Shown piece by piece: positions 20,534-64,000 of a DNA stretch of 64,000 nt. A model generated the notes under the pieces. The model ran no database searches, was not told the origin of the DNA, and saw only the letters and a list, made by a program, of their open reading frames with translations. Position numbers and translations under genes: made by a program. The number at the start of each line of letters is the position of its first letter. The stretch's first letter is position 1. This stretch comes from Flavobacteriales bacterium (GTDB lineage Bacteria; Bacteroidota; Bacteroidia; DT-38), in the NCBI GenBank assembly GCA_013214205.1, contig JABSPQ010000095.1, forward strand, positions 5,886-69,885. Direction: 5' to 3'.

Positions 20534-20617
20534 TAATTCACTTATCCAGTGATAACCCAAATAATTGATTTTTATTATGGTAAAGCATCCAAATTTTATT
20601 TTCTATTACTAGCAAAA

Positions 20618-46500: not shown

Positions 46501-46716
46501 CGTTCCGCCCTCTCCAATTCCGTTAGCAGTTTTCCCTGTGCTCCAAACAATAGAGTAATCTGCATCGTTGCCAGAAATAGATACAGTTGCTACTCCATCG
46601 CAACCATCGGTGCACGACACGTCAGAATCTGTTGTTATGCTACAAGTTGGCGCTTGAGCAAAGATTGAATTAATTGATAAAACAAATATGGCGAGCGTAA
46701 ATAGGCTTAGTTTCAT
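43513..46716 (-). CDS. SprB-repeat cell-surface adhesin-like protein with T9SS (Por) C-terminal sorting domain
   Basis: 1067 aa. Signal peptide MKLSLFTLAIFVLSINSIFAQ. About 12 repeats of C.G..DG...V...GG..PY.Y.W...G. C-terminal ...GIYLVRLTINNKQNTKKVYYTGN tail. Confidence 0.75.
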   Translation of the reverse strand: MKLSLFTLAIFVLSINSIFAQAPTCSITTDSDVSCTDGCDGVATVSISGNDADYSIVWSTGKTANGIGEGGTDTETSLCAGTYLVIVTDNSLLTGSCEVTLDNPTPLTGSVTTTDMTCNGLCNGTATFEFMGGEEGSPASYQWNDPMNQVGVTASFLCAGSYTVTVTTDQGCIREFNGVITEPAPVTALINYARQPLCFNEASGEACVFAQGGTAVAGFYTYAWNNGGSESCIDNVIGSNIVPLTVTVTDDNGCTASINTLIYNPTFLNVLTSGVDPSCNSNNWGGVCDGSVTAIAVGGTGSLYYQWDMNTVFQSTATAVELCGGEYCVTVTDANLCMVTACQTITEPSELIVADTTFVSSTCGNSNGSITITPAGGNGPIYSVLWNDGQTGYTLSNVSAGMYCVTIVDANNCEINECYNISDILGPQLNGTSGTDITCYGAADGTLYAEIPTGGTMPYIYKWTSPDTVYDLRSVVGVVPGSYVFCVTDANECRTCANSSITILAAQPINALLTTTDILCYGDCDGTASTQIVGGVEPYDIRWNASQETFGVSSIVLTTKSDLCANNYAVTITDANGCNTVLYDEITEPAEPLSISATVISVSCNGSDDGSIVVPHTGGTGIPIYTWSSSHSDFSINGLSPGIYDLTVTDANICTVTGTYEIYEADELILELMSTQTHCDMDDGSITSSVTGGVPDYAYLWSHDNITTSFADDLATGCYYVTVTDAAGCTATQEECVLEVAPLEVTLISKVNPSCYGICDGSIEVELSGGTTDGNGDYPNLHTWEGASGNNGSLTATSLCGSVSGSGSQIDATFYDEAGCSVTKTYFIQSPSELTINSLVSSSQLCIGQTTVISASPDGGTIPYTFVWSGDEIITPSAGPHVVGPVVSTDYDVYITDANGCSASTTISVNVEDSITLEVVNVNDSDLCAGSIQPELGCAVEPISYTWSNGSTSEVIDNLCGGTYTVTATDDNGTNYIASATVNNVTGILNKDSESFSIRVIKGSINIKSNHRGRAEVYDIRGRKINEMSLNSGSNRIEMKGAQRGIYLVRLTINNKQNTKKVYYTGN

Positions 46717-46911: not shown

Positions 46912-47361
46912 TTGCTAAAAGGAACTGTTTGGGAAAATTATCAGTTGGTAATTACGCAGTGGCCAATAAGTCCTTCAGTTGCATTTCCTGCTCCATTTTT
47001 ATATCCTAGAAGGTTTCCTCCTTTTACCGATGTTACAGGACAACCTCAAGGGGTTCAGGAGGCATATCATAGAGCAGAGAAAGCAGCCAAGGCATCTTAC
47101 CCATTACAAGCTGGTTTACCCATTCCTCAATCGGGATGTTTGAATGTGACTATGGAAACATATTTCCAAAACCCCAAAGGAACGACTTTAGAAAACACAA
47201 GTTGTATTGGTTGCCACTTTGGTGCATCGGATACGGATTATAGTTGGGCATTGAAACTTAGAACATGGCCGCAGCCTTATAATCAAGGGAGGGTTAATCC
47301 TGAGGATAGTAAAAGAGCTGCTAAGCCTGGGCATGAGGTTCCGGTGACAAAGAAGAAGTAA
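46912..47361 (+). CDS. orphan ORF with a CxxCH motif, possibly a gene remnant
   Basis: 149 aa with no signal peptide. SCIGCHFG is a heme-binding-type motif. It is locally more GC-rich than its surroundings. Confidence 0.3.
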   Translation: MLKGTVWENYQLVITQWPISPSVAFPAPFLYPRRFPPFTDVTGQPQGVQEAYHRAEKAAKASYPLQAGLPIPQSGCLNVTMETYFQNPKGTTLENTSCIGCHFGASDTDYSWALKLRTWPQPYNQGRVNPEDSKRAAKPGHEVPVTKKK

Positions 47362-48518: not shown

Positions 48519-50861
48519 CTAGTTGCCAGATAGAATTACCTTTTGGGAGATGGAGCCAGTTTCTGTTCTTATTTTTAGATAATACAAACCGGGTGTTTCT
48601 GCCATTTCTAAGCTGAAGTGTTTGCCAGAAAGGTTAGTGTAGCTATTAATTAGCCTTCCTGTTACATCAAACAACTGAATGTTTACATGTTGCTGAGGAG
48701 TGCTTAAATCTATATTTAAATCGCCTTGCGTAGGGTTGGGGTAAAGCTTTACGGTGGAAGACAAATTCTGATTTTCGAGACCTGTTGCAATTAGAGATAT
48801 TTCAATTCCGCTTATTGGCGACATAGGCTCGGTCAATTCAATTGTATGTGCATCATCAAAATTATTTTCTCCATAATAGTACGTTGGATCAAAATTATCT
48901 GCATCGCTACCAAGCGCTGAGGCTAATAATTTGTAATCATCCAAACAAAGACAGGTTGCGAAGAAATCACCATTGTTGATTAGAATGGTTTGAATGATTT
49001 CTTCAGTGGATGCATCTATAACATAAAGATTACCAGTAGTAAGGGGAGTAGCATCACTTTTTACAATGCCAGTAATAGAATGAGTGCATTTTGCATCTAT
49101 GTCGATTATTTCGACAGTATGTGCGCTACAAGGATCACAATCTGTGCGAATGGTGTATGATCCAATTCCGTATTCTCTATCAGATATACCAAGCAGATTG
49201 TTTGTTTCGCCTATCAATGCCACATCGTTTAAATACCATTGCGGTGAGCAACTTAATGCGTTTGAATCTGCATTGATTAAAACTAGATTGTCATCGCACA
49301 AACCACCTAGAGAAACAGTGGTAATAGGTGTTCCAACCCATGTATTACAATCGTCAAAACAAGTGTTGTCGTTAAGGTCTGTTAGTCCATTATAATCGTC
49401 GTCGATGGCATTGTTGCAAATTTCGTTTAGGGATAGATTAAGAATAAAAACGTCGTGGTCGCCGGCAGATTCTAATATTAAGGGATCTGCACTTGGATCA
49501 AAATCAACTATATTTTTAAATCCTCCTGTCATGTATATATTGGTATTGACCACCATTCCATAGGTATATTCATTTTCTGTTCCTCCAAAAGATTCTGCCC
49601 ATACCAAGTCTCCGTTGGCATCTAATAATTGAATAAAAACGTCATTGCCGCCATTAGAGTTAAGGTACATTGTATCTGGGCCTGGATCGAAATCAGTTGT
49701 GTTTGCAAAATTTCCTGTTACTAGAATCTGGTTGTTGGGAGTAAAAGTGACATTTATTGTTGAGGCCGCAAAAGTTGTACCGCCATTCATAGAAGTTACC
49801 CAAATTAAATTTCCATTCGAATCTAGTTTCTGAATAAAATGTGCTGTTGGTGTAGTTGTAGTAGATTCTAAGATTGCAATTCCTGGATCAAGATCTATAG
49901 TCCCTGTAAAATCTCCGCATACAATTACGTTTCCAGATTGATCAGAAGCGATAGAGGTTCCTTTATTTTCTGTAGTTCCTCCAATGCTATTAACGTATTG
50001 AACATTTCCTGCGGTATCTATTTTGAGTACGAAAGCATCTGTAGATCCAATAGACGTTAAGTCAAATGCTGGATTTAGAGGGGCAAAGCTTGCCGTGTTT
50101 TCAAAGTTTCCTGTTGCATAAATATTGCCGAAATCATCGTAAGTAATGTCGTTTCCAAAATCATTGCCTGTTCCTCCAAAGGAAGTTGCCCAAACAAAAT
50201 TTCCATCGGTGTCTAACTTTTGAATAAAACCATCTGAATTGCCCGCAGATGTTATACTAAAAACTGCTCCCGAAGGATCAAAATCGACAGTATTTTGAAA
50301 TTGTCCTGTTGTATAAATATTTCCTGTTTCGTCTATGGTTAAAGAATATGCTACATTATCTCCTGAGCCAAGTAATGAATGTGCCCAAATGAAATTTCCA
50401 TCAGAATCAAGTTTCTCTATAAAAATATCTCGATTTCCTTGAGAGGTGAAACTGACTTGAGGAGTTGTATTAAATTCTACTGTACCTCGAAAACTACCTG
50501 TTACAATGATGTCTCCATTATGGTCTAACACCAAGTCTCGCATTATGTCTGCTTCAGTGCCTCCAATAGATTTAATCCAGATGAAGTTTCCATCGCTATC
50601 TAATTTAACAATAAACATATCGGAACTTCCTAATGAGGTTTGGTTTGAAACACCTATTTCTGGATCGAAGTCTACTGTTTCTAAATATTTCCCACAGATG
50701 TATAAATTGCCAGAAGGATCTTGTTGCATGGTATAAGCACCGTCTTGCAAGTGATTTCCAATAGACTTGGCCCATTCTAATTCTACACTTTGTGCCAATG
50801 TTGATAGGGTGGTTGAAAGGCTGAATAGAATGGTTATTATGGTAATTAGCAGTGCTCGCAT
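48519..50861 (-). CDS. SBBP beta-propeller-repeat secreted protein with T9SS C-terminal sorting domain
   Basis: 780 aa. Signal peptide, at least 8 repeats of D.DGN..W..S.GG...D....D..GNIY.TG.F..T.DFDP. C-terminal LYPNPTQGDLNIDL...GLYYLKIRTETGSISQKVILSGN. Confidence 0.7.
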   Translation of the reverse strand: MRALLITIITILFSLSTTLSTLAQSVELEWAKSIGNHLQDGAYTMQQDPSGNLYICGKYLETVDFDPEIGVSNQTSLGSSDMFIVKLDSDGNFIWIKSIGGTEADIMRDLVLDHNGDIIVTGSFRGTVEFNTTPQVSFTSQGNRDIFIEKLDSDGNFIWAHSLLGSGDNVAYSLTIDETGNIYTTGQFQNTVDFDPSGAVFSITSAGNSDGFIQKLDTDGNFVWATSFGGTGNDFGNDITYDDFGNIYATGNFENTASFAPLNPAFDLTSIGSTDAFVLKIDTAGNVQYVNSIGGTTENKGTSIASDQSGNVIVCGDFTGTIDLDPGIAILESTTTTPTAHFIQKLDSNGNLIWVTSMNGGTTFAASTINVTFTPNNQILVTGNFANTTDFDPGPDTMYLNSNGGNDVFIQLLDANGDLVWAESFGGTENEYTYGMVVNTNIYMTGGFKNIVDFDPSADPLILESAGDHDVFILNLSLNEICNNAIDDDYNGLTDLNDNTCFDDCNTWVGTPITTVSLGGLCDDNLVLINADSNALSCSPQWYLNDVALIGETNNLLGISDREYGIGSYTIRTDCDPCSAHTVEIIDIDAKCTHSITGIVKSDATPLTTGNLYVIDASTEEIIQTILINNGDFFATCLCLDDYKLLASALGSDADNFDPTYYYGENNFDDAHTIELTEPMSPISGIEISLIATGLENQNLSSTVKLYPNPTQGDLNIDLSTPQQHVNIQLFDVTGRLINSYTNLSGKHFSLEMAETPGLYYLKIRTETGSISQKVILSGN

Positions 50862-52195
50862 TATCTTAAATTATAGGTGATTCCAATTCCAAATTTTAAA
50901 TAATTACTGGATTGAAGTGGATAGTGGGTTTGATTTTCAAGTTGATTTAACATTGTTGAGTATCCCAATTCTGTACTAATTTCTAATTGTGAATTGATTA
51001 AATAATTAATAAAAATCTTGTTTGAGGTGAACCACAACAGCTCGGTAGATTTTTCTTTTGTAGCAACAGCTCCTCTGCTATCGATGTATTGGCCGGTGTG
51101 AAAAACAAATGCAGGAGTAATCTGAAAAGAAAATTTTATAGCAATAATTTTATTTTGGACGATTGGAAACACAAGAGAGATAGGGAGTAATAAAATCTGT
51201 TTAGGTGCATTGATTTGGTTGTTGACTAGATTAGAATCTCTTACTTCAACATCTATACTATCACCAATGTAAACGCGAATGGTGTCGGGAGCAATTCCTC
51301 CAATATAAGAGCTGTGCACTTCAAACTCCTTGGTGGTGTATGTAGTATCTAAATAATATTGGCTCGAAATAGTGGAGTTGTATTTCATCGTTTGGATGCC
51401 TAACCCCACACCAAACTTAGGCATGTGATAGGTGATATTTAGGTTGGATAAGTAAGAGGGATCAACCGTCTGTTCAAAATCAACATCCATAATTGATGAA
51501 GATGCTGACGACAAAGTTGGCATTAAATAAGACGCGCTTAAGTTGAAAGAGAAGTATCTGTCTTTGTTTTTATCGATTGTAATTGTGGTGTCTTGCTGAA
51601 TTAAATCCTGATTCGCAATAGACGAAGGAGCAATTATTTTTGGTTCAGGTGCTATTTTGTTCTTTTTTAAGTTTGCTGTATCAAGCGGTAAGTGTGGTTC
51701 TTCATTGTCTACAATATGTTCTTCTATTGTCGAAGAAGAATCTTTAGTAATACTTGGTGGTCTAGGCTTTTCTGTAGGAGATATTTTCGTTAACAATGGC
51801 TGTAAGGAGGGTGGAGGAGGGATTTCTCTTTCTGCAATAGGAATGTAATCTTCCTTAAAAATAGATTGATAAGACTTTGGTTTATATATGGCAATAGTAT
51901 TTCCTACATATCGGAAGTTGATGTTGTAATTCGATAGCAGTTCTTTGAGAACCTCACGAATCGTAGCATTATGAACATTGATGGATGTTTTTTCTGAAGA
52001 AGGAATTAAACTGCTTTTTATGGAAAGCGATGTTTTTGCAATCTTAGCCATTTCCACTAAAACTTCTTGAACCGATTTGTTCTCTACTCTAAGATCTATT
52101 GTTTTATCAAGAATACTTTCTTGAGCGACTAAACCTGTGATGCTACAAACAAATATTAGGACTGATATAAAAAACGTTAAAAGACCTCTGTTCAT
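50861..52195 (-). CDS. STN (secretin/TonB short N-terminal) domain protein fused to a small C-terminal beta-barrel; outer membrane component of the ECF/FecR module
   Basis: 444 aa. Signal peptide, then STN-like VENKSVQEVLVEMAKIAKTSL...IREVLKELLSNYNINFRYVGNTIAIY. A Pro-rich linker precedes an amphipathic beta-strand C-terminal half. Its TAATG stop overlaps the start of the SBBP gene. Confidence 0.55.
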   Translation of the reverse strand: MNRGLLTFFISVLIFVCSITGLVAQESILDKTIDLRVENKSVQEVLVEMAKIAKTSLSIKSSLIPSSEKTSINVHNATIREVLKELLSNYNINFRYVGNTIAIYKPKSYQSIFKEDYIPIAEREIPPPPSLQPLLTKISPTEKPRPPSITKDSSSTIEEHIVDNEEPHLPLDTANLKKNKIAPEPKIIAPSSIANQDLIQQDTTITIDKNKDRYFSFNLSASYLMPTLSSASSSIMDVDFEQTVDPSYLSNLNITYHMPKFGVGLGIQTMKYNSTISSQYYLDTTYTTKEFEVHSSYIGGIAPDTIRVYIGDSIDVEVRDSNLVNNQINAPKQILLLPISLVFPIVQNKIIAIKFSFQITPAFVFHTGQYIDSRGAVATKEKSTELLWFTSNKIFINYLINSQLEISTELGYSTMLNQLENQTHYPLQSSNYLKFGIGITYNLR

Positions 52196-52209
52196 TTTCT
52201 ACTCTTCCT

Positions 52210-53310
52210 CTAACAACCTTCTCCTGAAATGATCAGTTTGTTTTTTTCTTCTTTAACCTTAAGTCCTAAAGTGATTTCGAAGAGCTCGAAAATTTCTTCT
52301 ATTGATAAGTTATCGTAGCGAGCAGTTATTTGGCAATTACCCAGTTGAGGATCTTCAAACACCAAATTAATCTGGTAATGCAAGTTCAATTGATTAATTA
52401 TTTTTTTCAAAGGCTTATCAACGAAGGTTAAAATTCCGTTGTGCCACGACAGATAGTTTTGATTGTCGTTGGCTGCTTGTACTGCTGTATAATTACCAGT
52501 TTGAAGTGTGCCCTTTTCATCAGCTGTCAATAAAACTTTGTTGGTATCGTCTTTATGGTAAAATTCAACGCTTCCTTCTTTAACAGTTACCACAATAGAA
52601 TCGGGGTTGTTTGCATTTACATTAAATGAAGTACCCTTAACTGCTATTCTGGCATTGCCAACATGAATGATAAATGGTTTTACGTCTGGTTGAACTAGGA
52701 AAAAACCTTCTCCTTCAAATTCTACAATTCTTTCATCAGATGAAAACGAAGGGGGGTAAGTTAGCTTAGATTTGTTATTCAAGATCACGTTTGAACTGTC
52801 GTGCAGTAATACTGAATTTTTTTCTGTTGTGTTGGTATTGATTACAATGTCGTTGGATTGTTCAATAGGATCGGCATGTGCTACTACAACCTTTTGATCT
52901 GAATTATCTTGGAATAAGAAATAAGCTAATCCTAAACCGGCCAATAAAACGGCAGCAATTCTTAAGATGAGTTTATCCGATTTCTTTTCTGCTGCAATCG
53001 GTATAATCTTTTTGTCCTTCGACTTGTCTACGGAAGTTTTAACATAGGTGGAAGGCTTAGCGAAGGGAGGATTGCTTTTGGCTTCATTTCTGATTTTTAG
53101 AAAATCTTTTTTGTATCTATCAGCATCCGATTCTTGATCCCATTCCTTTTTTAGCGCATTAAATTGGAAAATTTTCTTTGCCGAGTCGTAATCATTTTTA
53201 ATGGCAGGGTCGGAAATCATTAATTGATCTAACTCCGCTTTTTGCTCCCTAGTGGCTTCACCTGAAAGGCATGCATATATTAATTCGATATGTTGGTTTG
53301 GGTTACTCAT
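52210..53310 (-). CDS. FecR family anti-sigma factor / transmembrane sensor (FecR + DUF4974)
   Basis: 366 aa with a single TM helix (ILRIAAVLLAGLGLAYFLF). FecR-like periplasmic domain and a C-terminal DUF4974-like ...LKKIINQLNLHYQINLVFED... Confidence 0.7.
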   Translation of the reverse strand: MSNPNQHIELIYACLSGEATREQKAELDQLMISDPAIKNDYDSAKKIFQFNALKKEWDQESDADRYKKDFLKIRNEAKSNPPFAKPSTYVKTSVDKSKDKKIIPIAAEKKSDKLILRIAAVLLAGLGLAYFLFQDNSDQKVVVAHADPIEQSNDIVINTNTTEKNSVLLHDSSNVILNNKSKLTYPPSFSSDERIVEFEGEGFFLVQPDVKPFIIHVGNARIAVKGTSFNVNANNPDSIVVTVKEGSVEFYHKDDTNKVLLTADEKGTLQTGNYTAVQAANDNQNYLSWHNGILTFVDKPLKKIINQLNLHYQINLVFEDPQLGNCQITARYDNLSIEEIFELFEITLGLKVKEEKNKLIISGEGC

Positions 53311-53319
53311 GATTCACAT

Positions 53320-53925
53320 CTAATAAAATGACACACAGATTGGGGTGAGAGATTCAATGAAATCCAATAAAACAATAGATAAAATGATAATTGGCAGAAA
53401 CTCTGTGAGATGAATTTGCATTTTCTGTACCATGGTCATTATGTCATATTTTACTTTTCCAACATTAAGATTAAGTTTGCTCGCAACCTCTTTAGCAGTG
53501 AATCCTTCAAATCTGTTCAGTCTAAAAATTTGTTGACGAAGGTCATCTTCTTCCTGAAGGACTTCTTCCATCTTTAGAATTATTTCCATCTCAGTGGTAA
53601 AATCTGGGGTGAAACAATCTGTTTGGCTGGTCGCTACAAGATCGATTTTATTTGATCGGTGTTTCTCGTCTCTAATATAGTTTAAGCTGTTGCGGTGTAC
53701 TGCGCGTAGAAGATAGCCGAGCACATTGGATTCAATCTCAACCTCGTTTCGCTTTTCCCAAAGTTTAATGATGGTGTGGTGTGCTACTTCTTGTGCACTC
53801 TCTTGATCCTTAATTATTTTTCGGGCTTGCTTGTAAAGTATGGAGAAGTAATTGTCGTAAATGTATATGTACGCCTCTTCGTCATTCTTACGTAGCAATT
53901 CTAGAATATTTACCTTGTTAATCAA
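53320..53925 (-). CDS. ECF (sigma-70 family, group 4) RNA polymerase sigma factor
   Basis: Region 2 ...YIYIYDNYFSILYKQARKII.D...AQEVAHHTIIKLWEKR and a region 4 HTH ...FTAKEVASKLNLNVGKVKYDIMTMVQKM. Confidence 0.7.
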   Translation of the reverse strand: MINKVNILELLRKNDEEAYIYIYDNYFSILYKQARKIIKDQESAQEVAHHTIIKLWEKRNEVEIESNVLGYLLRAVHRNSLNYIRDEKHRSNKIDLVATSQTDCFTPDFTTEMEIILKMEEVLQEEDDLRQQIFRLNRFEGFTAKEVASKLNLNVGKVKYDIMTMVQKMQIHLTEFLPIIILSIVLLDFIESLTPICVSFY

Positions 53926-54198
53926 CTTTTCACCAAAAAATTACGGGCAAATGTACTTGTTATTAAGGTTGTAGGGCCTATTAACTCTGATAATTAGAAT
54001 ATGTTAAGCGAATGGTTTTTATATTGAGAAATGTAAGCTGATCAATATGCAGTGTATCAGTTAATTGTAAGTCGTGTCAGTGTTTTGTTGATAAAAAAGT
54101 GACTTTTTATCGAACTCGGTTGAAGTGCTTTGTGTCATGTATATCAGGTGGGAAAATTAACTTCCATCGATTGAGAAAATTAACACAAACTAGCAGTT

Positions 54199-57100
54199 AT
54201 GAATACAATTATTTCTTCAAATTTTAAGGCTTTCAAATTATTAATCGTGGTGTTGACAGTAATGTTTACGCAAATAATGAGTGTATCTGCTCAGTGCGAC
54301 CCAACTGTTACCAACAATGCAGTACTACTATATGTCAATGATCAACCGCTTACTAGTTCTTTAACGGACGGCTCTTGGTTAGAAAGCTACTACGATTATC
54401 AATTTAATTTCTATCAGGGTGGTGTGCAAGTGGCGTCTCATGAAATGGAGAGAGATGCCGAAGGGAATTTAATTTTATTAAAATATATTGACTTAGAAGG
54501 GATTTTTGTAGATGAAACCTACAATGTGAAAATTGCGATAAAAAATGCTGAAGGTGATAATTGGTCATGCGACGGAGACCTTCGTACGCTTCATCTCATT
54601 AACGATGCACAGGTTTTATATTGCGGCGAACATACGTTGCCAACAAACGTTACCGATAAAACTTGGTTTGCTGATTACGATGGATATCGATTTAACTTTT
54701 ATCAAAATAGCGAACTCGTTGCTTTTCACGAAATGAAAACAGACGAAGAAGGAAAGTTTATTATTGTTCAATATGGCGATATTGATGGATTAAATTTTGG
54801 GCAAACTTATGATGTGGCCATTGCAATTAAGCAAGATGGTGATGAAGCATGGTCGGTCGACGGTGTAAGTTGTTCCGTTACCTTTCCAACATGTTCAGCT
54901 AATAACCCTGCTGTAAATGTATCTACAATCATAGAAGATGCTTCTTGTGAAGAAGCGAGTAATGGAAAAATTGTAGCAACTGTTTCTGGTGGTACATCTC
55001 CTTTTGTGTATGAATGGAGCGATGAGTTAAAACAAACAAATTCAACTGCTGTTGAATTATCAGCCGGAACTTATACGGTAACGGTAACTGATAAGGTAGG
55101 TTGTTCATCGACCCAAACTTCAACTGTAACGCAAAAAGGTGGTGATTATCTCGTTAATGGCGTTGGAACAAGCACTACTTGTCATGGAGGAAATGACGGA
55201 AGTGCCGAAGTTGTAGTAGTGCAATCGGGCGAATCACAAACGCTTACCTGTGTTTGGGGAGAAGAAGCTGGTGTTCAGACAAGTTGCACTGCTACAGGTT
55301 TATCGGCAGGTTCTTATCCTGTAACCGTGGTAAATCAAAATGGTTGCAGTCCTAAATATCAAATTTCGGCTAGTGTGAAAAATGGTAGTGATTACCTTAT
55401 TACAGGTGTCGGAACAAGCACTACCTGTGATGGAGGAAATGATGGAAGCACCGAAGTTGTAGTAGTTCAATCCGAAGAAGAACAAACGCTTACATGTGCG
55501 TGGGGACCAGAAGTTGGAGCTACGGAAAATTGTACTGCTACAGGTTTATCGGCAGGTTCTTATCCTGTAACCGTAGTAAATCAAAATGGTTGCAGTCCTA
55601 AATATCAAATTTCCGCTAGTGTGAAAAATGGTAGTCATTATCTGGTTCAAGGTATTGGAACAAGCACTACTTGTTATGAAGGAAATGACGGAATTGCTGA
55701 AGTTGTAGTAGTACAATCTGAAGAAGAACAAACGCTTACGTGTGCGTGGGGACCAGAAGCTGGTGTTCAAACCAGTTGTACCGCTATTGGTTTATCGGCA
55801 GGTACATATCCTGTAACCGTAACAAATCAAAATGGCTGCAGCCCAACATATCAAATTACGGTTGAGGTGAAAAATGGTGTAAATCCTACAGGTAACTTGG
55901 CTCTGAGTATAATAACAGAAGTTACGAACGGGGTTTGTTCGGAAGAAGGCAATGGGCAAATAGCTACCGAGGTAAATGGTGGTACTACACCTTTTAGCTA
56001 CGCTTGGAGTGATGTCGCAGATCAAACCAGTGCAGTTGCAACAGGATTAGAATCCGGAACATATACGGTTACGGTAACGGATTTAATAGGGTGTTCTACT
56101 TCGAAAAGTGCTTCTGTTTTACAAGAAGGCAGCTCTTTAACAGATGTAGAATTTACTATAAGGAATGTGCAATGTAATGGTACCCTGGGAGCTGCTTTTA
56201 TAGATAAGGTTGTAGGCGGAAATACTTGGCCAACAGGATATTCTTATGCATGGTCTACTGGACAATCTGGTACGCATGCAGATGGCCTTAATATAGTGGA
56301 TGATTTACCTGCAGGAGAATATACAGTAACGGTTACAGATGCTTTGGGTTGTTCAATGGAAGAGACGTTTAGTATTGAAGCAGAGGATTGCGGCTGCGCT
56401 CATATAACTTGGATTAACGCTACTCAAGATGGAAAATGGGAGACAGCATCCAACTGGTCTACTGGAACCGTACCAAGTCCAAAAGATGCAGCCATTTTTA
56501 AAGATGCAACTGAGCAATATCCGTATTCAAATACAGATGCGGTTTTAAGCACCAATACATCTGTAGGACAAATAATAATAGAAGACAGTTACTCAGCTAC
56601 GGTTGATTTAAGTAATACTAATGAAGTGAAGCTTTCAAAACTAGAATTCGAATGTGCAACGGGCGACTTAACCATTAATGGCGGCTCGTTCAAAGCTCCA
56701 AATGATTTGTTCATGGATGGTAATCTATTAGTAGGTTATGCTAGTTACCTTCATGAAAACGGAACACTAAATTTTGTTGGAAATCTTCAGCAAACAATTA
56801 CTTCAATCGATGAAATAATTCTTCATGATTTCATAATCAACAATGAAGAAGGTGCCCTTTTATTAGGCCCAGATTTTATTATAGAAAATAGCCTTGACTT
56901 CCAATCAGGAATTATTTCTAATAGCAACAACCAAATCGTAATATTCGAAGACAATGCTGTTGCCTTAAATGCCTCTAATAACAGTTATGTGGAAGGTAAA
57001 GTCATGAAAACAGGAACCACTGATTTTGAATTTCCTGTAGGAAAAGCTGGAGAATATAGAATGATTGGGATTTCTGCACCTACAGAAAATTCGCACTTTG

Positions 57101-60100
57101 TGGCAGAGTACTTTAAAGGGCCAACACCAGATGTACAAGCAGATAATTTGCTGATGATAAATTACCTTGAATATTGGGAGTTATCGAGACCATTTGGTTT
57201 AGGATCCACTAATATTACTCTTTCATGGAATGAAAATAGTAGACATTTCAATCCGCTAGCAAGCATGGTGGTGGCGCAAGACATAAACAACGAATGGACA
57301 GATAAAGGGAATGGGTACGTTCATTCAAATGACTATGGCTACACTGGTGTAATTACCAGTAATAACGTAATAAGCTTTACCCACAACAAATTTACCATCG
57401 GATATAATGCAATTAAATTAGGATGTGGAACTAGTTCTTTGGCAGCTAATCAAAATATTGATAATTATCCTATTCCGCCAATTGATCCTTTCAACATATC
57501 TCCAGATAATATTGAACCTGATAATACGGCTCCAGTGGCCCCGATTTTATTTATAAAACCAGCAATAAATACAGTCCCTTTAGATCAGATTCTTTTTGAT
57601 GCTCCTTCAATAGCGGCCGCTCAATCAGCTGGTGCTACAGCGGAGCCCACTTATATTATCCCTGTGGCATTTCACTTAATTTATGATGACGATGGTGTAA
57701 GCAGCCCACTTGTAACCAAGGAAAGAATTGATGCTGCAATGAACGTATTGAATGAGGCATTTATAGGACAAGCGTCTATTGCGAATGTCACAGATCATGA
57801 TATGAGAATATCATTCTGTTTGGCGGAGTACGATCCTAATGGGGGTATTATTGATTACGATGGTTGTACAAATAATTATTCAATTCCGGTTTCAGAGGCT
57901 TTATTCTCATTAAGTGGAACAGATATGGTCACAATTGTCAATGCCACCAAACAATGGAGTAACAAAGAATATATGAATATTTATGTAGTAGATGATATTG
58001 TTAGTGATGACGGGCTGTCTATAGCAGGATTTGCAAAGTTACCCAGTGGATTATCTACAATAAATGGATTTGATGGTCTTGTAATGCGAAATAACATGGT
58101 TGGAGACAATGGCTTCTCAGCGATTCCTGCCCCCCCTCATCCATTAAATAATAATTATGACTTAGGACTAACGTTGGTACATGAAGCAGGACACTGGCTG
58201 GGATTGTATCACGTATTTGATCTTTATAACCTCAACCCAGCTAACCAGTGCGAAGATATTTCTTTTAATCAAGAAATATCAGATGCTACATGTAGTCATA
58301 CCGGTGATAGAGTTTGTGATACTCCTCCTATGTTTGGCACAAGCCCAGGAACACCCGTATTATGTAATTGGCTATCTGGAAACGAAAATACATGTATTGA
58401 AAGTGTAACATATGATGGTGTTCTTGAAGATAGAGATGATCCTACGGATAATTATATGTCTTATACCTCTGATCGATACGGAGATGGAGAAGCATGTAAA
58501 TATACATTTAGCGAGGGGCAAGGATTTAGAATGCGTCAACAAATAGGAGCTTATAGAAAGGACCTCGTAGGTACTTCAAACCTTATGTCAAAAATTACAT
58601 GTCCGTTTGATGCAATTATCGATGCTGAATTTACTGCGGACATAACTCAAATATGTATTGGAGAAAGTGTGAACTTTGAAGCAACTCAGCATCAAACTAG
58701 CACTGCAACATATACATGGGATTTTGGTGATGGAAATATTATTTCAGGTACAGGAATTGGTTTTGTAACAGTTAGTCATAATTATACCTTAACGAGTATA
58801 ACAGAAGCCTATACTGTTAGCTTAACAATTTCTGAAGCAGACCTCACTGCCTGGCCTAATTCTTCAACAGAAATAAAGAGTGAATTAACTTATGTGTCTT
58901 TATGTCCAACTATAGCAAGTTCAGAAGGACAATGGTATTTTAATAATGCTTGTGCATTGGATTTTTCTTCCGGGAAACCAGTTGCAAACAATAGTGCATA
59001 CGATACTGACTTAAATCAACCAACGATATACTCGCCATCATACTACCCTTCACTTTCTCAAAGTGATGCCAACGGTCAATTGGTGTTTTATGCTTCAGGA
59101 ATGACTGTATGGAATTCTCAGCACCATGAGGTCGAAACATTTAGTGGTTCGGGTCGAGTTTTATTATCTGTCTTAAAACCAAAGTCGAACCCACTTGATT
59201 TAGATGAATATTATATATTCTATCAAATTGATGGGATCCAAGCTGGTGCTGGGATTTATTATTCTATTTACGATCCCAATACTGATTTTTTATCCACGGG
59301 AACTCAAATAACTGGTCCGGGTGCTCAAAATAACTCACTGCAAACTAATGTAAGCACTTCTATGGAGGTAATACCTCAATGTAATGGAACTGATTATTGG
59401 TTGATATTTTTTGATGAGGCAGAAACTAATTTCTATGTAGGTGGTTTAACAGCAAACGGTGTTCAAACATTCACTTCTAATCCTTCAGGAATCCCCTCAT
59501 TTGGTCAAGATATATTAATAAGGATTAATGCCTCACCATCCGGAGATAAACTAATTATTTCATCCATGTGGTCGCAAACTTTTGGTGCATATTTATATAA
59601 TTTCGACATAGCAACAGGAGAGATTTCTAACGGTTTACAGATTGAAACAATAGGTGTTGAGGCTGCTAGTTTTAGTCCTAATTCTGAAGTGATATATCTT
59701 ATTGTTAAGAATTCTCAACCTACATTACATGTTGGGCTTAAGGCATATGATTTAACTAATCTCGCCAATATTGAAAGTAAACTATTAACCCCTTTTATAC
59801 CATGGGGTGGACCCAATAATCATCCGTGGTATTCGGATCTGCAAATAGGGCCTGATGGGAAAATCTATATCGCTGAATTAGGCGTCGGTAATGTTTTATC
59901 GACTCCCCTTCCTCCCAAAGGCAGGTTTTTATCTGTCATTAATTTCCCAGATGCTTATTCCAATTCTGGCTTTAATAAACGAAGTGTTCCTTTAAAAAGC
60001 CCATCATCAGCTATTAAATGGTCTTATAGACGGTTACCTCGAATAAACCAGGCTAAACCTATTCCAACCCCTGCACCAACTAGCTATGATGTTGTTACGG

Positions 60101-63100
60101 GATCCTCATGTAGGGAAGTTGAATTTTATGCTCCTGAATGTATCAATGTTACTTCATGGGATTTTGGTGATATGTCTAGTCCATCCACCGACACCGATCC
60201 AATACATGTTTTTGCTAATAGTGGTACTTATAATGTAACACTAAATTTTATTAAAAATGGTGCAATTTATTCTATTACTCAAACATATACTTTTGATCCA
60301 GTAATTGCGCCAACAATAACAGGCCCTGGTGCTGCATTGGGTTTGGTTTGCTCTTATGAGCTTGAAGTTCCTGGGCAGTTTTATAGTATCACAGGTAATT
60401 ATTCTGCTTGTAATTGGTCGGGAACTGGAGATGCAAATTCAATAATGGCTAACAATAGCCCAATTGTTGGAGCAAATTGGAATGCTTCACCGAGCTCTGG
60501 TGAGATTTCTGTGAGTTGTGTTGATGAAAATGCTTGTACAGTAAATAGTACCACCGGACCAATTATAATTTCATCTATCGATGGGTCAATTACGAGTTCT
60601 ATTGATCCTAGTTGCACGACTCTTGGTTCTGCTACTGTAACTATTATTGGGGGTGTTTCACCATATGAGGTGGAATGGTCTGGTGGGAATAGTAACAATG
60701 TAGTAGGTTATACATCTAATACTCATTCTGCTTCAGGATTGGCATATAGTCTTACGGGACAATCTGTTGTTGTTGCGGACGATAATAATTGCTTATTTCA
60801 AGACATTATTTACTTCAATAATGTAGGAGCTGTTTCTATTGATCAGGTCTATCTTATAGATCCTTCGTCAATAGGAGGAAGTAATGGGAGTATCGCTTTT
60901 CAATTGGGTTTAGGTAGTGGTGATAATTTTGATATTCAATGGTCTGATGCTTCATTTAACGAAACAGGAGTATTGGAGGGTCCAGTTAATTTAACGGGAT
61001 TGGTTGATGGAATGTACGATGTAACAATCACGAACAATGTTACATCATGTTCTATAGTGCAATCATTTAACTTGTTAGAACCAATAGACTGTTTTGCCTC
61101 TGCGAATATTATAACTCTATCAACAGCTTTGGTAGATCCATCTTGTATGCTTTCTGGTGATGGGACCATTGAAATAACAGCTACAGGAGGAACTTTACCT
61201 TATGATTACAATTGGTCTAATGGGGAAACAACAGAAGATTTAGTTGACCTTTCAGGAGGAGATTACACCATTCAAGTAACAGATGGCAATGGTTGTATTA
61301 CAAGTGCATTGTTCACCTTGACGGAGCCAGCAGAACTTGCTGTGTCAGGAACACCTGTTAATCTCACATGCTTTAGTTTGAGTAATGGAAGCATTGATTT
61401 AACTATTTCAGGAGGAGCTTTACCTTATGATTACGATTGGTCTAATGGAGAAACAACAGAAGACTTAGTTAATCTTTCAGGAGGGGATTACACCATTGAA
61501 GCAACAGATGACAATGGTTGTATCACTACCTCATTATTTACTTTAATAGAACCGTTAGAACTAACTTTGTTGGGTACTATAAATGATCCCTCATGCTTCG
61601 GTTTGAGTGATGGAAGCATTGATCTAACTATTTCAGGAGGAACTTTACCTTATGATTACAATTGGTTTAACGGAGAAACCTCAGAAGACTTAGTTAATCT
61701 TACAGGGGGAGATTATACCATTCAAGTAACAGATGGTAATGGTTGTATTACATCTTCATTGTATACCTTGACAGATCCAACTGAATTAGTTTTATCAGGT
61801 ATTCCTGTAAACCCTTCCTGTAACCTATTTTGCGGCGGCGCAATAGGGGATGGATCAATAGATTTAACCGTTATTGGCGGAACTGCGCCATATAATTATT
61901 TATGGTCTAATGCAGCTACATCTGAGGACTTAACCTCGCTTTCAGCTGGCCCATACGAAGTTACCGTTACCGATGATAACAATTGCGAAAGCACTACCTC
62001 AGCCACTCTTTTCAGTGGAAATCTAAATGTTGAACTTCAAGATTTATCTGTAGGCGCAACATGTGCAAACGCTAGCGGTGAGATACAAACTTCGGTTACA
62101 AGTGTTTTCTACTCTAATAATTGTGAACTCACTGAATCGGTTTGTTCTGGATTAGGTACAAATGAAATGTTCATAGATATACCTGTTAGCGGTTTAACTG
62201 GTGCAACTATTACTAATAATACGGTGGCAGCACTTTGTATTGATGGTTTCCAAGCAACAGAAGGCCATATGAGTATACAATTATATCCACCAGGAGCGGA
62301 TTTAACTGAGATGAAGTTGGTCACTGTTCTAGGAATTATGGGATCACCGTGGGGGCAATCAGAATACAATGACGTCTGTTTTAAAAATGGAAATTACACC
62401 GAAATTAGAGATGATATAAGTCCTTTTAATGGAACTTATTACGCCCCATTGGATCATAGCGATTTTGCCGGAATGGGGATGTCTGTTGATGGAACTTGGA
62501 AGGTGAGATTTGGATGGATATGTAATGATGAAGGAACTGGTACTTTCTTACCATGGACACTTGGGGAAAACGCAATTAGTCTACATATAAATGAAGTATC
62601 ACCAAACATCACCTACAACTGGGAAAGCACCACAACTAGTGTTCCATCGGGTGCCAATCCTTCTAATTTGTTAGCAGGTACATATACAGTTACTGTTGAT
62701 GACGGTGGCGCTTGTCCTCCTGTAGAAACCGTCGAAATTCTTAATGACTTAGGAATATGGGACGTGTACACCGAGGGTGAGTACTGCGATGGATTTGGAG
62801 GCTCCGTAGAATTTTATCATACAAATAGTAATCTTCTTACCTATGAATATAATATGGATGGAATTTTACAATCATCTACGGAAGATTGGCATTATCCATT
62901 AACACCAGGTATATATGGAATATCGGTTACTGATATAGATGGCTGTGAAAGGGTTTATAACGAAGTTATAACTGGTTCATCTATTGATTGTGCGACACAG
63001 CAATGCCATGCCAATTTGGGAATCACATCAATTAGTGAAAGTCCTGGTTCTACTTGTGCTTTGCTTGATGCTGATCAGGCGTTTACCCCATGTCCTGGAA

Positions 63101-64000
63101 ACGAAATTGTTTATACTGTACCTATTATAAATCTTGGTTCATCCACATGGGAAGTAAATAGTACTGTGTTCACTCTTACCCTCGATCATGGTAGAAAACT
63201 CAAATATATTCCAGCCGATACAGATAATGGAGTTACGTTTAGCTTTCTTTCTGAGAATACTTACGCTGCCGGAGTTTCGGTATATGAATACCGCTTTACA
63301 CAGCCAATACTTCCTGGAAGTGGAGTGTTCTACGCTCGACTATATGTTGATGTACCAGATGTTCAAGAACCTGTTGAAGGCTGGTATACCGAAGTAAGTT
63401 TAAGTTCAGAATGCGATGGGTCAATGGTTGAACTTAAAAGAATTGTAGATCACCAAACAGCAGCATGTTCTTGCGATCCTAACGACAAAAATGTTACACC
63501 AACTGGATGTGGTATTCAAGGTTTAATTAATGAGCAAACCCTTGATTATAGGATTCGATTCCAAAATCTTGGAGGAGGAAATGCGCATGACATTTATGTG
63601 ACTGATATATTAGATGAGAACTTAGATTTAGGTACGTTTAAGTTGGGTTCTTCTTCTCATAACATTACTAATCATCATATTGATGCCAATAGTAGAAAAC
63701 TTACTGTTTACTTTACAGGAATAGAGTTGCCTGCATATAAATTCGATGAAGAAGGCAGCAAAGGATTCTTTGAATTCTCTATTGATGTACTTGAAGACCG
63801 TGAACCTGGAACAACCGTTACCAATAGTGCTTCAATTTTCTTTGATGCCAACGAACCCGTAATCACCAACACCACCATCAACACATTGGTTGATGGAGAA
63901 GTTATTCCATCGATAACAGCTAGTGCTGATGTTACCATCAATGAAGGAGAAAGCACGGAGCTTACTGCTACGGCTTCTGGTAGTTTACCTCCTTATGAAT
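54199..64000 (+). CDS. giant secreted mosaic surface protein (>3267 aa, C-terminus beyond window): SprB repeats + embedded M43 metallopeptidase + PKD x2 + P-domain-like + DUF11-like
   Basis: I translated frame 1 by hand from ATG 54199 to the window end and met no stop. Signal peptide MNTIISSNFKAFKLLIVVLTVMFTQIMSVSAQ. HEAGHWLGLYH at 58180-58212, NYMSY Met-turn, WDFGDG and WDFGDM PKD cores, and repeated C.G..DG...V.GG..PY.Y.WS motifs. It is absent from the ORF track because it has no stop codon in the window. Confidence 0.8.
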   Translation, partial: MNTIISSNFKAFKLLIVVLTVMFTQIMSVSAQCDPTVTNNAVLLYVNDQPLTSSLTDGSWLESYYDYQFNFYQGGVQVASHEMERDAEGNLILLKYIDLEGIFVDETYNVKIAIKNAEGDNWSCDGDLRTLHLINDAQVLYCGEHTLPTNVTDKTWFADYDGYRFNFYQNSELVAFHEMKTDEEGKFIIVQYGDIDGLNFGQTYDVAIAIKQDGDEAWSVDGVSCSVTFPTCSANNPAVNVSTIIEDASCEEASNGKIVATVSGGTSPFVYEWSDELKQTNSTAVELSAGTYTVTVTDKVGCSSTQTSTVTQKGGDYLVNGVGTSTTCHGGNDGSAEVVVVQSGESQTLTCVWGEEAGVQTSCTATGLSAGSYPVTVVNQNGCSPKYQISASVKNGSDYLITGVGTSTTCDGGNDGSTEVVVVQSEEEQTLTCAWGPEVGATENCTATGLSAGSYPVTVVNQNGCSPKYQISASVKNGSHYLVQGIGTSTTCYEGNDGIAEVVVVQSEEEQTLTCAWGPEAGVQTSCTAIGLSAGTYPVTVTNQNGCSPTYQITVEVKNGVNPTGNLALSIITEVTNGVCSEEGNGQIATEVNGGTTPFSYAWSDVADQTSAVATGLESGTYTVTVTDLIGCSTSKSASVLQEGSSLTDVEFTIRNVQCNGTLGAAFIDKVVGGNTWPTGYSYAWSTGQSGTHADGLNIVDDLPAGEYTVTVTDALGCSMEETFSIEAEDCGCAHITWINATQDGKWETASNWSTGTVPSPKDAAIFKDATEQYPYSNTDAVLSTNTSVGQIIIEDSYSATVDLSNTNEVKLSKLEFECATGDLTINGGSFKAPNDLFMDGNLLVGYASYLHENGTLNFVGNLQQTITSIDEIILHDFIINNEEGALLLGPDFIIENSLDFQSGIISNSNNQIVIFEDNAVALNASNNSYVEGKVMKTGTTDFEFPVGKAGEYRMIGISAPTENSHFVAEYFKGPTPDVQADNLLMINYLEYWELSRPFGLGSTNITLSWNENSRHFNPLASMVVAQDINNEWTDKGNGYVHSNDYGYTGVITSNNVISFTHNKFTIGYNAIKLGCGTSSLAANQNIDNYPIPPIDPFNISPDNIEPDNTAPVAPILFIKPAINTVPLDQILFDAPSIAAAQSAGATAEPTYIIPVAFHLIYDDDGVSSPLVTKERIDAAMNVLNEAFIGQASIANVTDHDMRISFCLAEYDPNGGIIDYDGCTNNYSIPVSEALFSLSGTDMVTIVNATKQWSNKEYMNIYVVDDIVSDDGLSIAGFAKLPSGLSTINGFDGLVMRNNMVGDNGFSAIPAPPHPLNNNYDLGLTLVHEAGHWLGLYHVFDLYNLNPANQCEDISFNQEISDATCSHTGDRVCDTPPMFGTSPGTPVLCNWLSGNENTCIESVTYDGVLEDRDDPTDNYMSYTSDRYGDGEACKYTFSEGQGFRMRQQIGAYRKDLVGTSNLMSKITCPFDAIIDAEFTADITQICIGESVNFEATQHQTSTATYTWDFGDGNIISGTGIGFVTVSHNYTLTSITEAYTVSLTISEADLTAWPNSSTEIKSELTYVSLCPTIASSEGQWYFNNACALDFSSGKPVANNSAYDTDLNQPTIYSPSYYPSLSQSDANGQLVFYASGMTVWNSQHHEVETFSGSGRVLLSVLKPKSNPLDLDEYYIFYQIDGIQAGAGIYYSIYDPNTDFLSTGTQITGPGAQNNSLQTNVSTSMEVIPQCNGTDYWLIFFDEAETNFYVGGLTANGVQTFTSNPSGIPSFGQDILIRINASPSGDKLIISSMWSQTFGAYLYNFDIATGEISNGLQIETIGVEAASFSPNSEVIYLIVKNSQPTLHVGLKAYDLTNLANIESKLLTPFIPWGGPNNHPWYSDLQIGPDGKIYIAELGVGNVLSTPLPPKGRFLSVINFPDAYSNSGFNKRSVPLKSPSSAIKWSYRRLPRINQAKPIPTPAPTSYDVVTGSSCREVEFYAPECINVTSWDFGDMSSPSTDTDPIHVFANSGTYNVTLNFIKNGAIYSITQTYTFDPVIAPTITGPGAALGLVCSYELEVPGQFYSITGNYSACNWSGTGDANSIMANNSPIVGANWNASPSSGEISVSCVDENACTVNSTTGPIIISSIDGSITSSIDPSCTTLGSATVTIIGGVSPYEVEWSGGNSNNVVGYTSNTHSASGLAYSLTGQSVVVADDNNCLFQDIIYFNNVGAVSIDQVYLIDPSSIGGSNGSIAFQLGLGSGDNFDIQWSDASFNETGVLEGPVNLTGLVDGMYDVTITNNVTSCSIVQSFNLLEPIDCFASANIITLSTALVDPSCMLSGDGTIEITATGGTLPYDYNWSNGETTEDLVDLSGGDYTIQVTDGNGCITSALFTLTEPAELAVSGTPVNLTCFSLSNGSIDLTISGGALPYDYDWSNGETTEDLVNLSGGDYTIEATDDNGCITTSLFTLIEPLELTLLGTINDPSCFGLSDGSIDLTISGGTLPYDYNWFNGETSEDLVNLTGGDYTIQVTDGNGCITSSLYTLTDPTELVLSGIPVNPSCNLFCGGAIGDGSIDLTVIGGTAPYNYLWSNAATSEDLTSLSAGPYEVTVTDDNNCESTTSATLFSGNLNVELQDLSVGATCANASGEIQTSVTSVFYSNNCELTESVCSGLGTNEMFIDIPVSGLTGATITNNTVAALCIDGFQATEGHMSIQLYPPGADLTEMKLVTVLGIMGSPWGQSEYNDVCFKNGNYTEIRDDISPFNGTYYAPLDHSDFAGMGMSVDGTWKVRFGWICNDEGTGTFLPWTLGENAISLHINEVSPNITYNWESTTTSVPSGANPSNLLAGTYTVTVDDGGACPPVETVEILNDLGIWDVYTEGEYCDGFGGSVEFYHTNSNLLTYEYNMDGILQSSTEDWHYPLTPGIYGISVTDIDGCERVYNEVITGSSIDCATQQCHANLGITSISESPGSTCALLDADQAFTPCPGNEIVYTVPIINLGSSTWEVNSTVFTLTLDHGRKLKYIPADTDNGVTFSFLSENTYAAGVSVYEYRFTQPILPGSGVFYARLYVDVPDVQEPVEGWYTEVSLSSECDGSMVELKRIVDHQTAACSCDPNDKNVTPTGCGIQGLINEQTLDYRIRFQNLGGGNAHDIYVTDILDENLDLGTFKLGSSSHNITNHHIDANSRKLTVYFTGIELPAYKFDEEGSKGFFEFSIDVLEDREPGTTVTNSASIFFDANEPVITNTTINTLVDGEVIPSITASADVTINEGESTELTATASGSLPPYE
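55138..55875 (+). repeat. 3 x 246-nt near-identical in-frame tandem repeats (82-aa modules) inside the giant ORF
   Basis: Units begin at 55138, 55384 and 55630. Unit peptide GxDYL.xG.GTSTTC.GGNDG..EVVVVQS.E.QTLTC.WG.E.G...CTA.GLSAG.YPVTV.NQNGCSP.YQI...VKNG. Confidence 0.85.
57640..58570 (+). other. M43 (pappalysin/cytophagalysin/ulilysin-type) zinc metallopeptidase catalytic domain embedded in the giant ORF
   Basis: HEXXHXXGXXH as HEAGHWLGLYH at 58180-58212. A Met-turn NYMSY lies about 90 codons downstream, with several Cys around the site (CEDIS..CSHTGDRVCDTPP). Confidence 0.7.
61195..61870 (+). repeat. 3 x 225-nt near-identical in-frame tandem SprB-type repeats (75-aa modules) inside the giant ORF
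   Basis: Units begin at 61195, 61420 and 61645. Unit peptide LPYDY.WSNGETTEDLV.LSGGDYTIQVTDGNGCITS.LFTL.EP.EL..SGT..N..CF.LS.GSIDLTISGG. Confidence 0.85.
62160..62580 (+). other. proprotein-convertase P-domain-like module within the giant ORF
   Basis: ...YYAPLDHSDFAGMGMSVDGTWKVRFGWICNDEGTGTFLPWTL resembles the P-domain signature G.W.L.V.D...D.G.L..W.L. Confidence 0.45.

Follow-up and report, generated by a model that had tools for sequence, protein, structure and literature searches.

A giant open reading frame at the end of the window

We analyzed a 64,000-nt stretch of DNA (hereafter the window) from Flavobacteriales bacterium, corresponding to positions 5,886 to 69,885 of the forward strand of contig JABSPQ010000095.1 (assembly GCA_013214205.1). 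From position 54199 to its end, the window is occupied by a giant open reading frame (ORF) on the plus strand. We consider it likely that this ORF, of which the window holds the first 3,267 of 3,562 residues, encodes a multidomain zinc metalloprotease of the lower-pappalysin (M43B) type, here called the giant protein.

Translation of frame 1 was free of stop codons over 54199 to 63999 (3,267 codons). ATG 54199 is the first start after an in-frame stop at 54181 to 54183, and the other frames contain no ORF of at least 100 aa overlapping 53926 to 64000. The complete version of the ORF was found in GenBank as NQY08917.1 (P0186 in our searches), a protein of 3,562 aa encoded on a 71,199-bp contig of a metagenome-assembled genome (MAG). 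All 3,267 residues translated from the window are identical to it, with 0 mismatches, and the stop codon lies 295 codons past the window end. We obtained this C-terminus as protein, through the cluster of a 98%-identical fragment (P0040) that contains P0186. The preliminary description of this DNA had proposed a single continuous frame from ATG 54199 to 64000; no in-frame stop splits 54199 to 63999, and NQY08917.1 agrees throughout. The same description had called the ORF unannotated, but it is already deposited as a GenBank coding sequence, under the name "T9SS type A sorting domain-containing protein", where T9SS stands for type IX secretion system.

We also looked for the gene in other assemblies. 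A contig scan with the C-terminal 300 aa of the window translation gave a sole match (L001), a DUF7619 fragment at 51% identity. A search for contigs encoding P0186 gave none, and the neighboring FecR gene matched in ENA contigs of 2-3 kb only. A metagenome scan with a degenerate pattern for HEAGHWLGLYHVFD returned one contig (L004), which was rejected as an orthologue; it encodes an unrelated M43 protein at 28% identity.

The layout of the ORF within the window is as follows (aa numbers refer to the giant protein):

54199..54291, plus strand: start codon and Sec-type signal peptide, aa 1-31 (...MSVSAQ/C), by inspection of the translation
54292..54903, plus strand: two tandem domains of ~110 aa, aa 32-235, seen as an internal duplication in the translation
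54943..56382, plus strand: SprB-type repeat block A, aa 249-728, 6 units (unit profile; Pfam SprB, 3 stretches in the segment)
56383..57408, plus strand: beta-rich domain, aa 729-1070, kept upstream of the M43 module in relatives
57409..57657, plus strand: prosegment-like linker, aa 1071-1153, with Cys1076 (nt 57424-57426) and a Pro-rich insert of ~37 aa (alignments)
57658..58593, plus strand: M43 (lower pappalysin) catalytic domain, aa 1154-1465 (Pfam, phmmer against PDB, Foldseek)
58621..58866, plus strand: PKD domain 1, aa ~1475-1556, WDFGD at 58717 (Pfam PKD_4, best stretch 1482-1548, E 1.5e-10)
58930..59994, plus strand: seven-bladed beta-propeller, aa ~1578-1932
60091..60624, plus strand: PKD domain 2 with a PKD-like/immunoglobulin (Ig)-like extension, aa ~1965-2142, WDFGD at 60157 (second PKD_4 stretch)
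60625..62067, plus strand: SprB-type repeat block B, aa 2143-2623 (unit profile; Pfam SprB, 4 stretches, 128.8 bits in the segment)
62068..62568, plus strand: domain of ~165 aa, aa 2624-2790, no profile match
62569..63474, plus strand: two degenerate SprB-type units, aa 2791-2931 (weak matches to the unit profile), and a further stretch, aa 2932-3092; no Pfam family
63475..63885, plus strand: DUF7619 beta-sandwich, aa 3093-3229 (Pfam PF24595, E 1.3e-34)
63886..64000, plus strand: start of an Ig-like domain that continues past the window (from P0186)

The M43 catalytic domain

The segment aa 1154-1465 is a genuine M43B (lower pappalysin) catalytic domain. The Pfam profile Peptidase_M43 (PF05572) scored 33.5 bits on the whole protein and 34.3 bits on the segment, at a cut-off of 23. 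Using aa 1130-1475 as the query, phmmer against PDB gave ulilysin (1.4e-12) and mirolysin (2e-11) as the best matches, with the human pappalysins matching weakly. An AlphaFold2 (AF2) model of aa 729-1480 was of moderate confidence (overall pLDDT 58.6), but the top Foldseek matches of its catalytic part were ulilysin (2cki, E 6.3e-13, target-normalised TM 0.70) and mirolysin (TM 0.69). The assignment to M43 made in the preliminary description is therefore borne out by both sequence and fold.

The zinc motif HEAGHWLGLYH is located at aa 1328-1338 (nt 58180-58212) and the Met-turn NYMSY at aa 1418-1422 (nt 58450-58464), where the latter aligns with N[YF]MDY of the relatives. Both had been proposed from the sequence and were confirmed in place; we also checked whether the zinc motif might lie in a different frame from the flanking repeats, and the frame is the same. 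The giant protein keeps the three zinc-binding His residues, the catalytic Glu1329, Gly1335, Met1420 and, at the Met+2 position, Tyr1422, and six Cys of its M43 domain are in family-conserved columns. A Tyr at Met+2 has been described as the "tyrosine switch" of lower pappalysins (PMC11674741). Judging from these residues, the domain is probably active as a protease.

The catalytic domain belongs to a conserved M43-PKD-propeller-PKD module

The two PKD modules described earlier were recovered at their WDFGD motifs (58717 and 60157), but the ~400-aa region that they flank, which had been left unassigned, is a seven-bladed beta-propeller. In one relative, the propeller position gave a near-threshold match to Lactonase (PF10282). 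The module of aa ~1150-2114 (M43, PKD, propeller, PKD and PKD-like) aligned in a single block to proteins 1,000-1,700 aa long, with which it shares 26-30% identity. The alignments covered 64-98% of the 1,001-aa query, and the block starts ~70 residues from the N-terminus of the relatives. According to BLAST against homologues, the conserved module ends at aa ~2114, and relatives have a PKD_6 domain at the site that corresponds to PKD domain 2 and its extension.

Searched exhaustively against cluster representatives, the central module matched 5,315 proteins at E<=1e-3, and 152 of these reached E<=1e-30. Most module-bearing relatives are ~1,000-2,000 aa long. Of 148 module-bearing proteins, 138 have the start of the catalytic domain among their first 200 residues, and the other 10 have it further in. 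As for export, 10 of 12 stand-alone relatives scanned with Pfam reached the cut-off for a type A T9SS C-terminal domain (CTD). Of the other two, P0013, which is partial, has no CTD, and P0049 combines the M43 module with DUF7619 and a type A CTD just under the cut-off (23.7 against 27 bits).

The best-scoring relatives are embedded forms, that is, proteins with the module inside a longer chain. P0041 (2,524 aa) carries SBBP and Ice_binding domains before the module and SprB after it; P0045 consists of SBBP, the module and four SprB repeats; and P0046 (MBN4065969.1 from Ca. Amoebophilus asiaticus, 1,937 aa and probably partial) has the module followed by four SprB repeats. In three of the closest relatives, the module is thus followed by Pfam SprB repeats. 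P0043, P0047, P0079, P0165 and P0172 also have an embedded module, and all have a type A CTD at the end. Collinearity with the giant protein extends over its aa 823-2542 in P0046 (31% identity, E 1e-161) and over its aa 861-2161 in P0079, where it starts in the beta-rich domain and runs to the module's end. A beta-rich domain followed by M43, PKD, propeller, PKD and SprB is therefore a recurrent arrangement and not an assembly accident.

All module-bearing relatives inspected at the zinc site keep HExxHxxxxxH. In two of them, P0046 (HEVGHYFRLYH) and P0045 (HEVGHYLRLFH), an Arg replaces the Gly of HExxHxxGxxH. We also noticed that P0046, the best collinear relative, comes from an obligate intracellular symbiont of amoebae.

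The design had been regarded as unusual, which holds in part. The module belongs to a common family of T9SS cargo, of which about 10 of 148 members are embedded; among the relatives scanned, however, only the giant protein has Pfam-grade SprB repeats on both sides together with a catalytic domain that begins more than 1,000 residues into the chain. We found no description of the M43-PKD-propeller-PKD module or of SprB-repeat proteases in literature searches. Taken together, the giant protein does not represent a new kind of system; it is a mosaic protein of exceptional size within a widespread, unstudied family of M43 proteases exported by the T9SS. The analysis thereby defines a widespread M43-PKD-seven-bladed propeller-PKD module that can be built into very large repeat proteins.

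SprB-type repeats and the sorting domain

To delimit the repeats, we built a unit hidden Markov model (HMM) from the giant protein's own repeat units. It detected 10-14 SprB-type units, about a third of the chain, and placed the two blocks at 54943-56382 and 60625-62067, close to the ~54946-56350 and ~60540-62060 given before. Pfam SprB (PF13573) scored 167.7 bits on the whole translation, in 6 stretches. In block A, three of the six units are an 82-aa variant encoded by a 246-bp tandem DNA repeat, which Tandem Repeats Finder (TRF) located at 55133-55878 (period 246, 3.0 copies, 84% matches). Block B includes four highly alike units of ~75 aa, and TRF located a repeat of period 225 at 61184-61752 (82% matches). 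The two degenerate units downstream (62569-62991) gave weak matches to the unit HMM.

Beyond the window, P0186 continues through the Ig-like domain and three Cys/His repeats of ~46 aa to a type A CTD at aa 3486-3560. The CTD scored 38.8 bits with TIGR04183 (cut-off 23) and 30.4 bits with PF18962 (cut-off 27). For type B, TIGR04131 gave no match on P0186 at E<=0.1, and CHU_C (PF13585) reached 19.4 bits, short of its cut-off of 27. Two other proteins of the window do match the type B model, so the distinction between type A and type B is meaningful in this genome. Completing the ORF downstream, as had been recommended, thus identified a T9SS CTD of type A. The expected export through the T9SS is consistent with it, but the giant protein is not SprB-like in the functional sense, as the type B CTD that defines SprB was not detected.

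The repeats themselves occur with type A CTDs elsewhere. In a 1,067-aa protein encoded in the window at 43513-46716 (minus strand), 7 Pfam SprB repeats are combined with a T9SS CTD of type A, and P0038 (SprB repeats, DUF7619 and a type A CTD) and P0039 show the same pairing. We therefore regard the SprB repeat as a generic Ig-like building block whose presence does not identify a protein as functionally SprB. What marks a gliding adhesin is the type of CTD, not SprB repeats by themselves. PF13573 was above its cut-off in 3 of 14 top-hit representatives scanned and in 0 of 6 module-bearing proteins scanned earlier. A count with the unit HMM had suggested SprB units in 20 of 148 module-bearing proteins; we rejected it after a Pfam check, because this HMM over-calls related Ig-like domains. 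Likewise, a possible internal relic of a type A CTD at aa 2321-2368 (TIGR04183, 17.4 bits) was rejected, since these residues form the C-terminal strands of a SprB unit.

Two domain calls of the preliminary description in the C-terminal part were revised. For the module read as P-domain-like, we found no support in the sequence: aa 2620-2830 matched no Pfam family at E<=1, PF01483 included, and no PDB chain at E<=10 by phmmer. The DUF11-like beta-sandwich is present and distantly related to DUF11, but DUF11 remained below threshold (16.7 against 24.6 bits; TIGR01451, 18.5 against 24) and the family is DUF7619 (PF24595, 119.6-123.6 bits, cut-off 27).

The Cys/His-rich repeats of P0186 (aa 3324-3465) lie in tandem just before the CTD and follow the pattern K.LMCHxGGMGxPHxHCVKxKDVDxNLxKxDWxLGxC. 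They matched no Pfam or NCBIfam family at E<=0.1, and they might bind metal.

A prosegment-like linker precedes the catalytic domain

In the stand-alone relatives, a conserved Cys in the motif C-x-[ST]-[DE] directly follows the signal peptide, and the catalytic IPVV strand begins ~45 residues later. This motif matches the cysteine-switch prosegment of ulilysin, mirolysin and cytophagalysin CPL1 (PMC11674741, PMC8259862). Six embedded relatives (P0041, P0043, P0047, P0079, P0165 and P0172) keep the prosegment Cys and the segment following it inside the chain. Cys1076 of the giant protein (LGCGTSS) aligned with the prosegment Cys column of both the stand-alone and the embedded relatives.

It is possible, from this alignment, that an internal cysteine switch at Cys1076 keeps the giant protein latent. 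A working switch is not established, since the residue at Cys+3 is Ser and the linker is Pro-rich and predicted to be disordered. We had considered using the AF2 model of aa 729-1480 to place Cys1076 relative to the zinc site, and set this aside as the confidence over the linker was too low.

Comparison with known systems

The closest characterized systems are mirolysin, ulilysin and cytophagalysin CPL1. The best matches to aa 1154-1465 in both sequence and fold, mirolysin of Tannerella forsythia and ulilysin of Methanosarcina acetivorans (MEROPS M43B), share with the giant protein HExxHxxGxxH, the Met-turn and the Tyr at Met+2, and the giant protein has a Cys in the aligned cysteine-switch column. 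They differ in size and layout: mirolysin and ulilysin have a mass of ~30-40 kDa and a prosegment that immediately follows the signal peptide, whereas the catalytic domain of the giant protein begins at residue 1154 of 3,562, behind a Pro-rich linker predicted to be disordered, and has a ~20-aa insert after the zinc motif. Mirolysin is described in the literature as a secretory protease, and its relation to the T9SS has been discussed. Both mirolysin and cytophagalysin are M43 enzymes with known or predicted T9SS CTDs and cysteine-switch prosegments (PMC8259862, PMC11674741).

Like the giant protein, cytophagalysin CPL1 of Cytophaga sp. L43-1 (137 kDa) is a multidomain M43 protein of Bacteroidota. 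It consists of a signal peptide, a prosegment, the catalytic domain and eight Ig-like domains, including a CTD-like predicted T9SS signal; it is gelatinolytic, and an E-to-A change abolishes its activity (PMC11674741). Unlike the giant protein, CPL1 has its catalytic domain at the N-terminal end, with no N-terminal extension, no beta-propeller and no SprB repeats.

Stand-alone module proteins, such as P0006 of Flavobacterium psychrophilum (1,129 aa), have the whole module in common with the giant protein, and they have type A CTDs. The module starts ~70 residues from their N-terminus, whereas 1,150 residues precede it and 1,450 follow it in the giant protein. P0041, P0045, P0046 and P0079 are intermediate, with an embedded module and, in some of them, SprB repeats after it.

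SprB of Flavobacterium johnsoniae resembles the giant protein in its Cys-containing Ig-like PF13573 repeats, its very large size and its export by the T9SS, which for the giant protein is a prediction. SprB carries a CTD of type B and requires SprF; the giant protein has a type A CTD and a catalytic module, and no sprF-like gene is adjacent to it on the upstream side.

The human upper pappalysins PAPP-A and PAPP-A2 also hold an M43 domain inside a chain of more than 1,500 aa. They were weak PDB matches, at chain positions ~480-600, and weak fold matches. They are eukaryotic, secreted proteins without homology to the giant protein outside the catalytic domain, and their accessory domains differ. 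PAPP-A binds substrates through exosites, and the role proposed below for the propeller and PKD domains would be a parallel to this.

Evidence against the assignment and alternative readings

Several points weigh against reading the giant protein as an M43B protease. The Pfam M43 score is modest (33.5 bits), and the NCBIfam equivalog TIGR03952 scored 57.5 against a cut-off of 208, which places the giant protein outside that lipoprotein subfamily. The ~20-aa insert after the zinc motif accompanies low model confidence (pLDDT 35-50 over aa ~1343-1416). The putative switch motif is CGTS, with a Ser at Cys+3 where an acidic residue is usual, and in the Pro-rich linker around Cys1076, predicted to be disordered, AF2 pLDDT is below 40 over aa 1070-1147. 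Finally, since a contig from a sister sample (L002, described below) diverges after the signal peptide, the N-terminal architecture may vary between strains, or one of the two assemblies may be wrong there.

The M43 domain might instead be a non-catalytic relic, and the giant protein a pure adhesin or S-layer-like scaffold in which the propeller and PKD domains would act as in archaeal S-layer proteins. We consider this improbable. Besides the zinc ligands, the catalytic Glu, the Gly, the Met and the Tyr at Met+2, the six conserved Cys are retained, and the presence of HExxHxxxxxH in every relative inspected at the site argues for selection on catalysis.

The ORF could also be an assembly chimera of several repeat-containing T9SS genes, given that the source is a MAG, that the gene contains tandem repeats and that L002 diverges right after the signal peptide. 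Nevertheless, the DNA repeats are only 82-84% identical, low enough for an assembler to resolve; the GC content of the ORF matches that of the window (38.5% and 37.6%); the independent 253-aa ENA fragment P0040, which spans M43, PKD and propeller, shows 98% identity; and collinearity reaches from the beta-rich domain into the SprB repeats in P0046 and up to the module's end in P0079. Such independent support is lacking only for the junctions before aa ~823 and after aa ~2542. On balance, we find a chimera quite improbable.

That the giant protein is a SprB-type gliding adhesin, a filament on the gliding track with an incidental protease, is highly improbable: its abundant Pfam SprB repeats in two blocks, its very large size and the type B CTD proteins of the window, which show that the organism has that pathway, would fit, but its own CTD is of type A with no type B CTD detected, its upstream neighbors are an ECF sigma factor and FecR with no sprF/porP-like gene among them, the SprB-type units make up only about a third of the chain, and the repeat is not diagnostic.

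Proposed mode of action

As an M43B protease, the giant protein would be exported in two steps, across the inner membrane by Sec and then across the outer membrane by the T9SS with its PorV shuttle. Type A CTDs are handled by PorV, and type B CTDs by PorP/SprF-like shuttles; SprB and other type B cargo of F. johnsoniae need their cognate PorP/SprF shuttles (PMC12618676, PMC9143113). The exported protein would then be attached to the cell surface or released. If it is attached by its C-terminus, the ~1,400 residues from the module to the CTD (block B, DUF7619, the Ig-like domain and the Cys/His repeats) could serve as a stalk. The propeller and PKD domains may act as substrate-binding or lectin-like exosites, and the N-terminal 1,070 residues (the two tandem domains, block A and the beta-rich domain) may add binding or spacing.

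If Cys1076 is the cysteine-switch Cys, retained internally, activation may require cleavage at around aa 1150. Such a cut, between the linker and the catalytic domain, would speculatively sever the N-terminal ~1,150 residues. One product would be an N-terminal piece with SprB repeats and the beta-rich domain, released or retained non-covalently; the other would be the protease with its propeller and stalk, anchored at the C-terminus. The giant protein would in that case be a surface-tethered zymogen, with its prosegment moved 1,076 residues inward, whose activation cuts the megaprotein in two. We regard this as unlikely. If the internal prosegment were functional, the embedded forms would offer a test of mid-chain zymogen activation, and of whether the adhesive part is shed when the protease is switched on.

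Multidomain T9SS-exported M43 proteases are known or proposed virulence or matrix-degrading factors, such as mirolysin in periodontitis and cytophagalysin-like enzymes in fish-pathogenic flavobacteria. The sole potentially surprising element of the giant protein is its internal prosegment and what this implies for activation; otherwise it is an ordinary, if very large, mosaic T9SS cargo.

The N-terminal part

The signal peptide claimed earlier was seen on inspection of the translation, where the N-terminus MNTIISSNFKAFKLLIVVLTVMFTQIMSVSAQ/C is organized like a Sec signal peptide into n-, h- and c-regions, with a basic n-region and a hydrophobic core LLIVVLTVMF followed by VSAQ/C. The two tandem domains behind it (aa 32-235) are visible as an internal duplication, DGSWLESYYDYQFNFYQ and DKTWFADYDGYRFNFYQ, and matched no Pfam family at its cut-off.

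The beta-rich domain (aa 729-1070) has no Pfam family either. P0183-P0185, which are homologous to it, are small T9SS cargo proteins of type A, and one of them has a weak G8 match. The AF2 model of the domain is all-beta at moderate confidence. Word-indexed homologue searches with this domain and with the C-terminal region gave very few matches.

The contig L002 (ENA ERZ23490591 scaffold_1603, sample SAMN09710602) is 100% identical to window 51862-54293, a stretch with FecR, the ECF sigma factor, the intergenic region and ~32 codons from the start of the giant ORF. Its nt 1-420 differ from window 54294-54713, so that another mature sequence stands behind an identical signal peptide. This mature part contains a SprB-type unit 49% identical to aa 635-731 of the giant protein, followed by a thrombospondin-type-3-like Asp-rich repeat. 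It may be that sister populations swap different surface-protein cassettes while promoter and signal peptide stay fixed, or that one short contig is chimeric.

Genomic context

The window is chromosomal, with the housekeeping genes lepA, dxs, asnS, rpoN, gdhA, accC and purD, and an Rfam scan of it found no RNA families. Upstream of the giant ORF lies a divergent operon (50861-53925 and 48519-50861, both on the minus strand) encoding an extracytoplasmic function (ECF) sigma factor, the FecR-type anti-sigma factor, an STN-domain protein and an SBBP protein. The STN-domain protein has 444 aa, too short for a SusC-type TonB-dependent transducer, and the SBBP beta-propeller-repeat protein has 780 aa and a type A T9SS CTD. 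This ECF sigma/FecR operon may regulate the giant gene. Among the upstream neighbors, the only side that could be inspected in the window, there is no sprF/porP-like gene.

Besides the giant protein, the window encodes four proteins with a T9SS CTD, two of type A and two of type B. The type B proteins (TIGR04131) are encoded at 15188-17350 on the plus strand (720 aa, 47 bits) and at 17930-20560 on the minus strand (876 aa, 41.6 bits); they flank a riboflavin synthase gene (17336-17920), and no NCBIfam family matched the N-terminal part of either.

A 149-aa ORF with a TTG start (46912-47361, plus strand), located between the SprB-repeat gene and a gene of the metallo-beta-lactamase fold, carries a CxxCH haem-binding-like motif (SCIGCHFG). 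It looks like a C-terminal fragment, possibly the remnant of a pseudogene.

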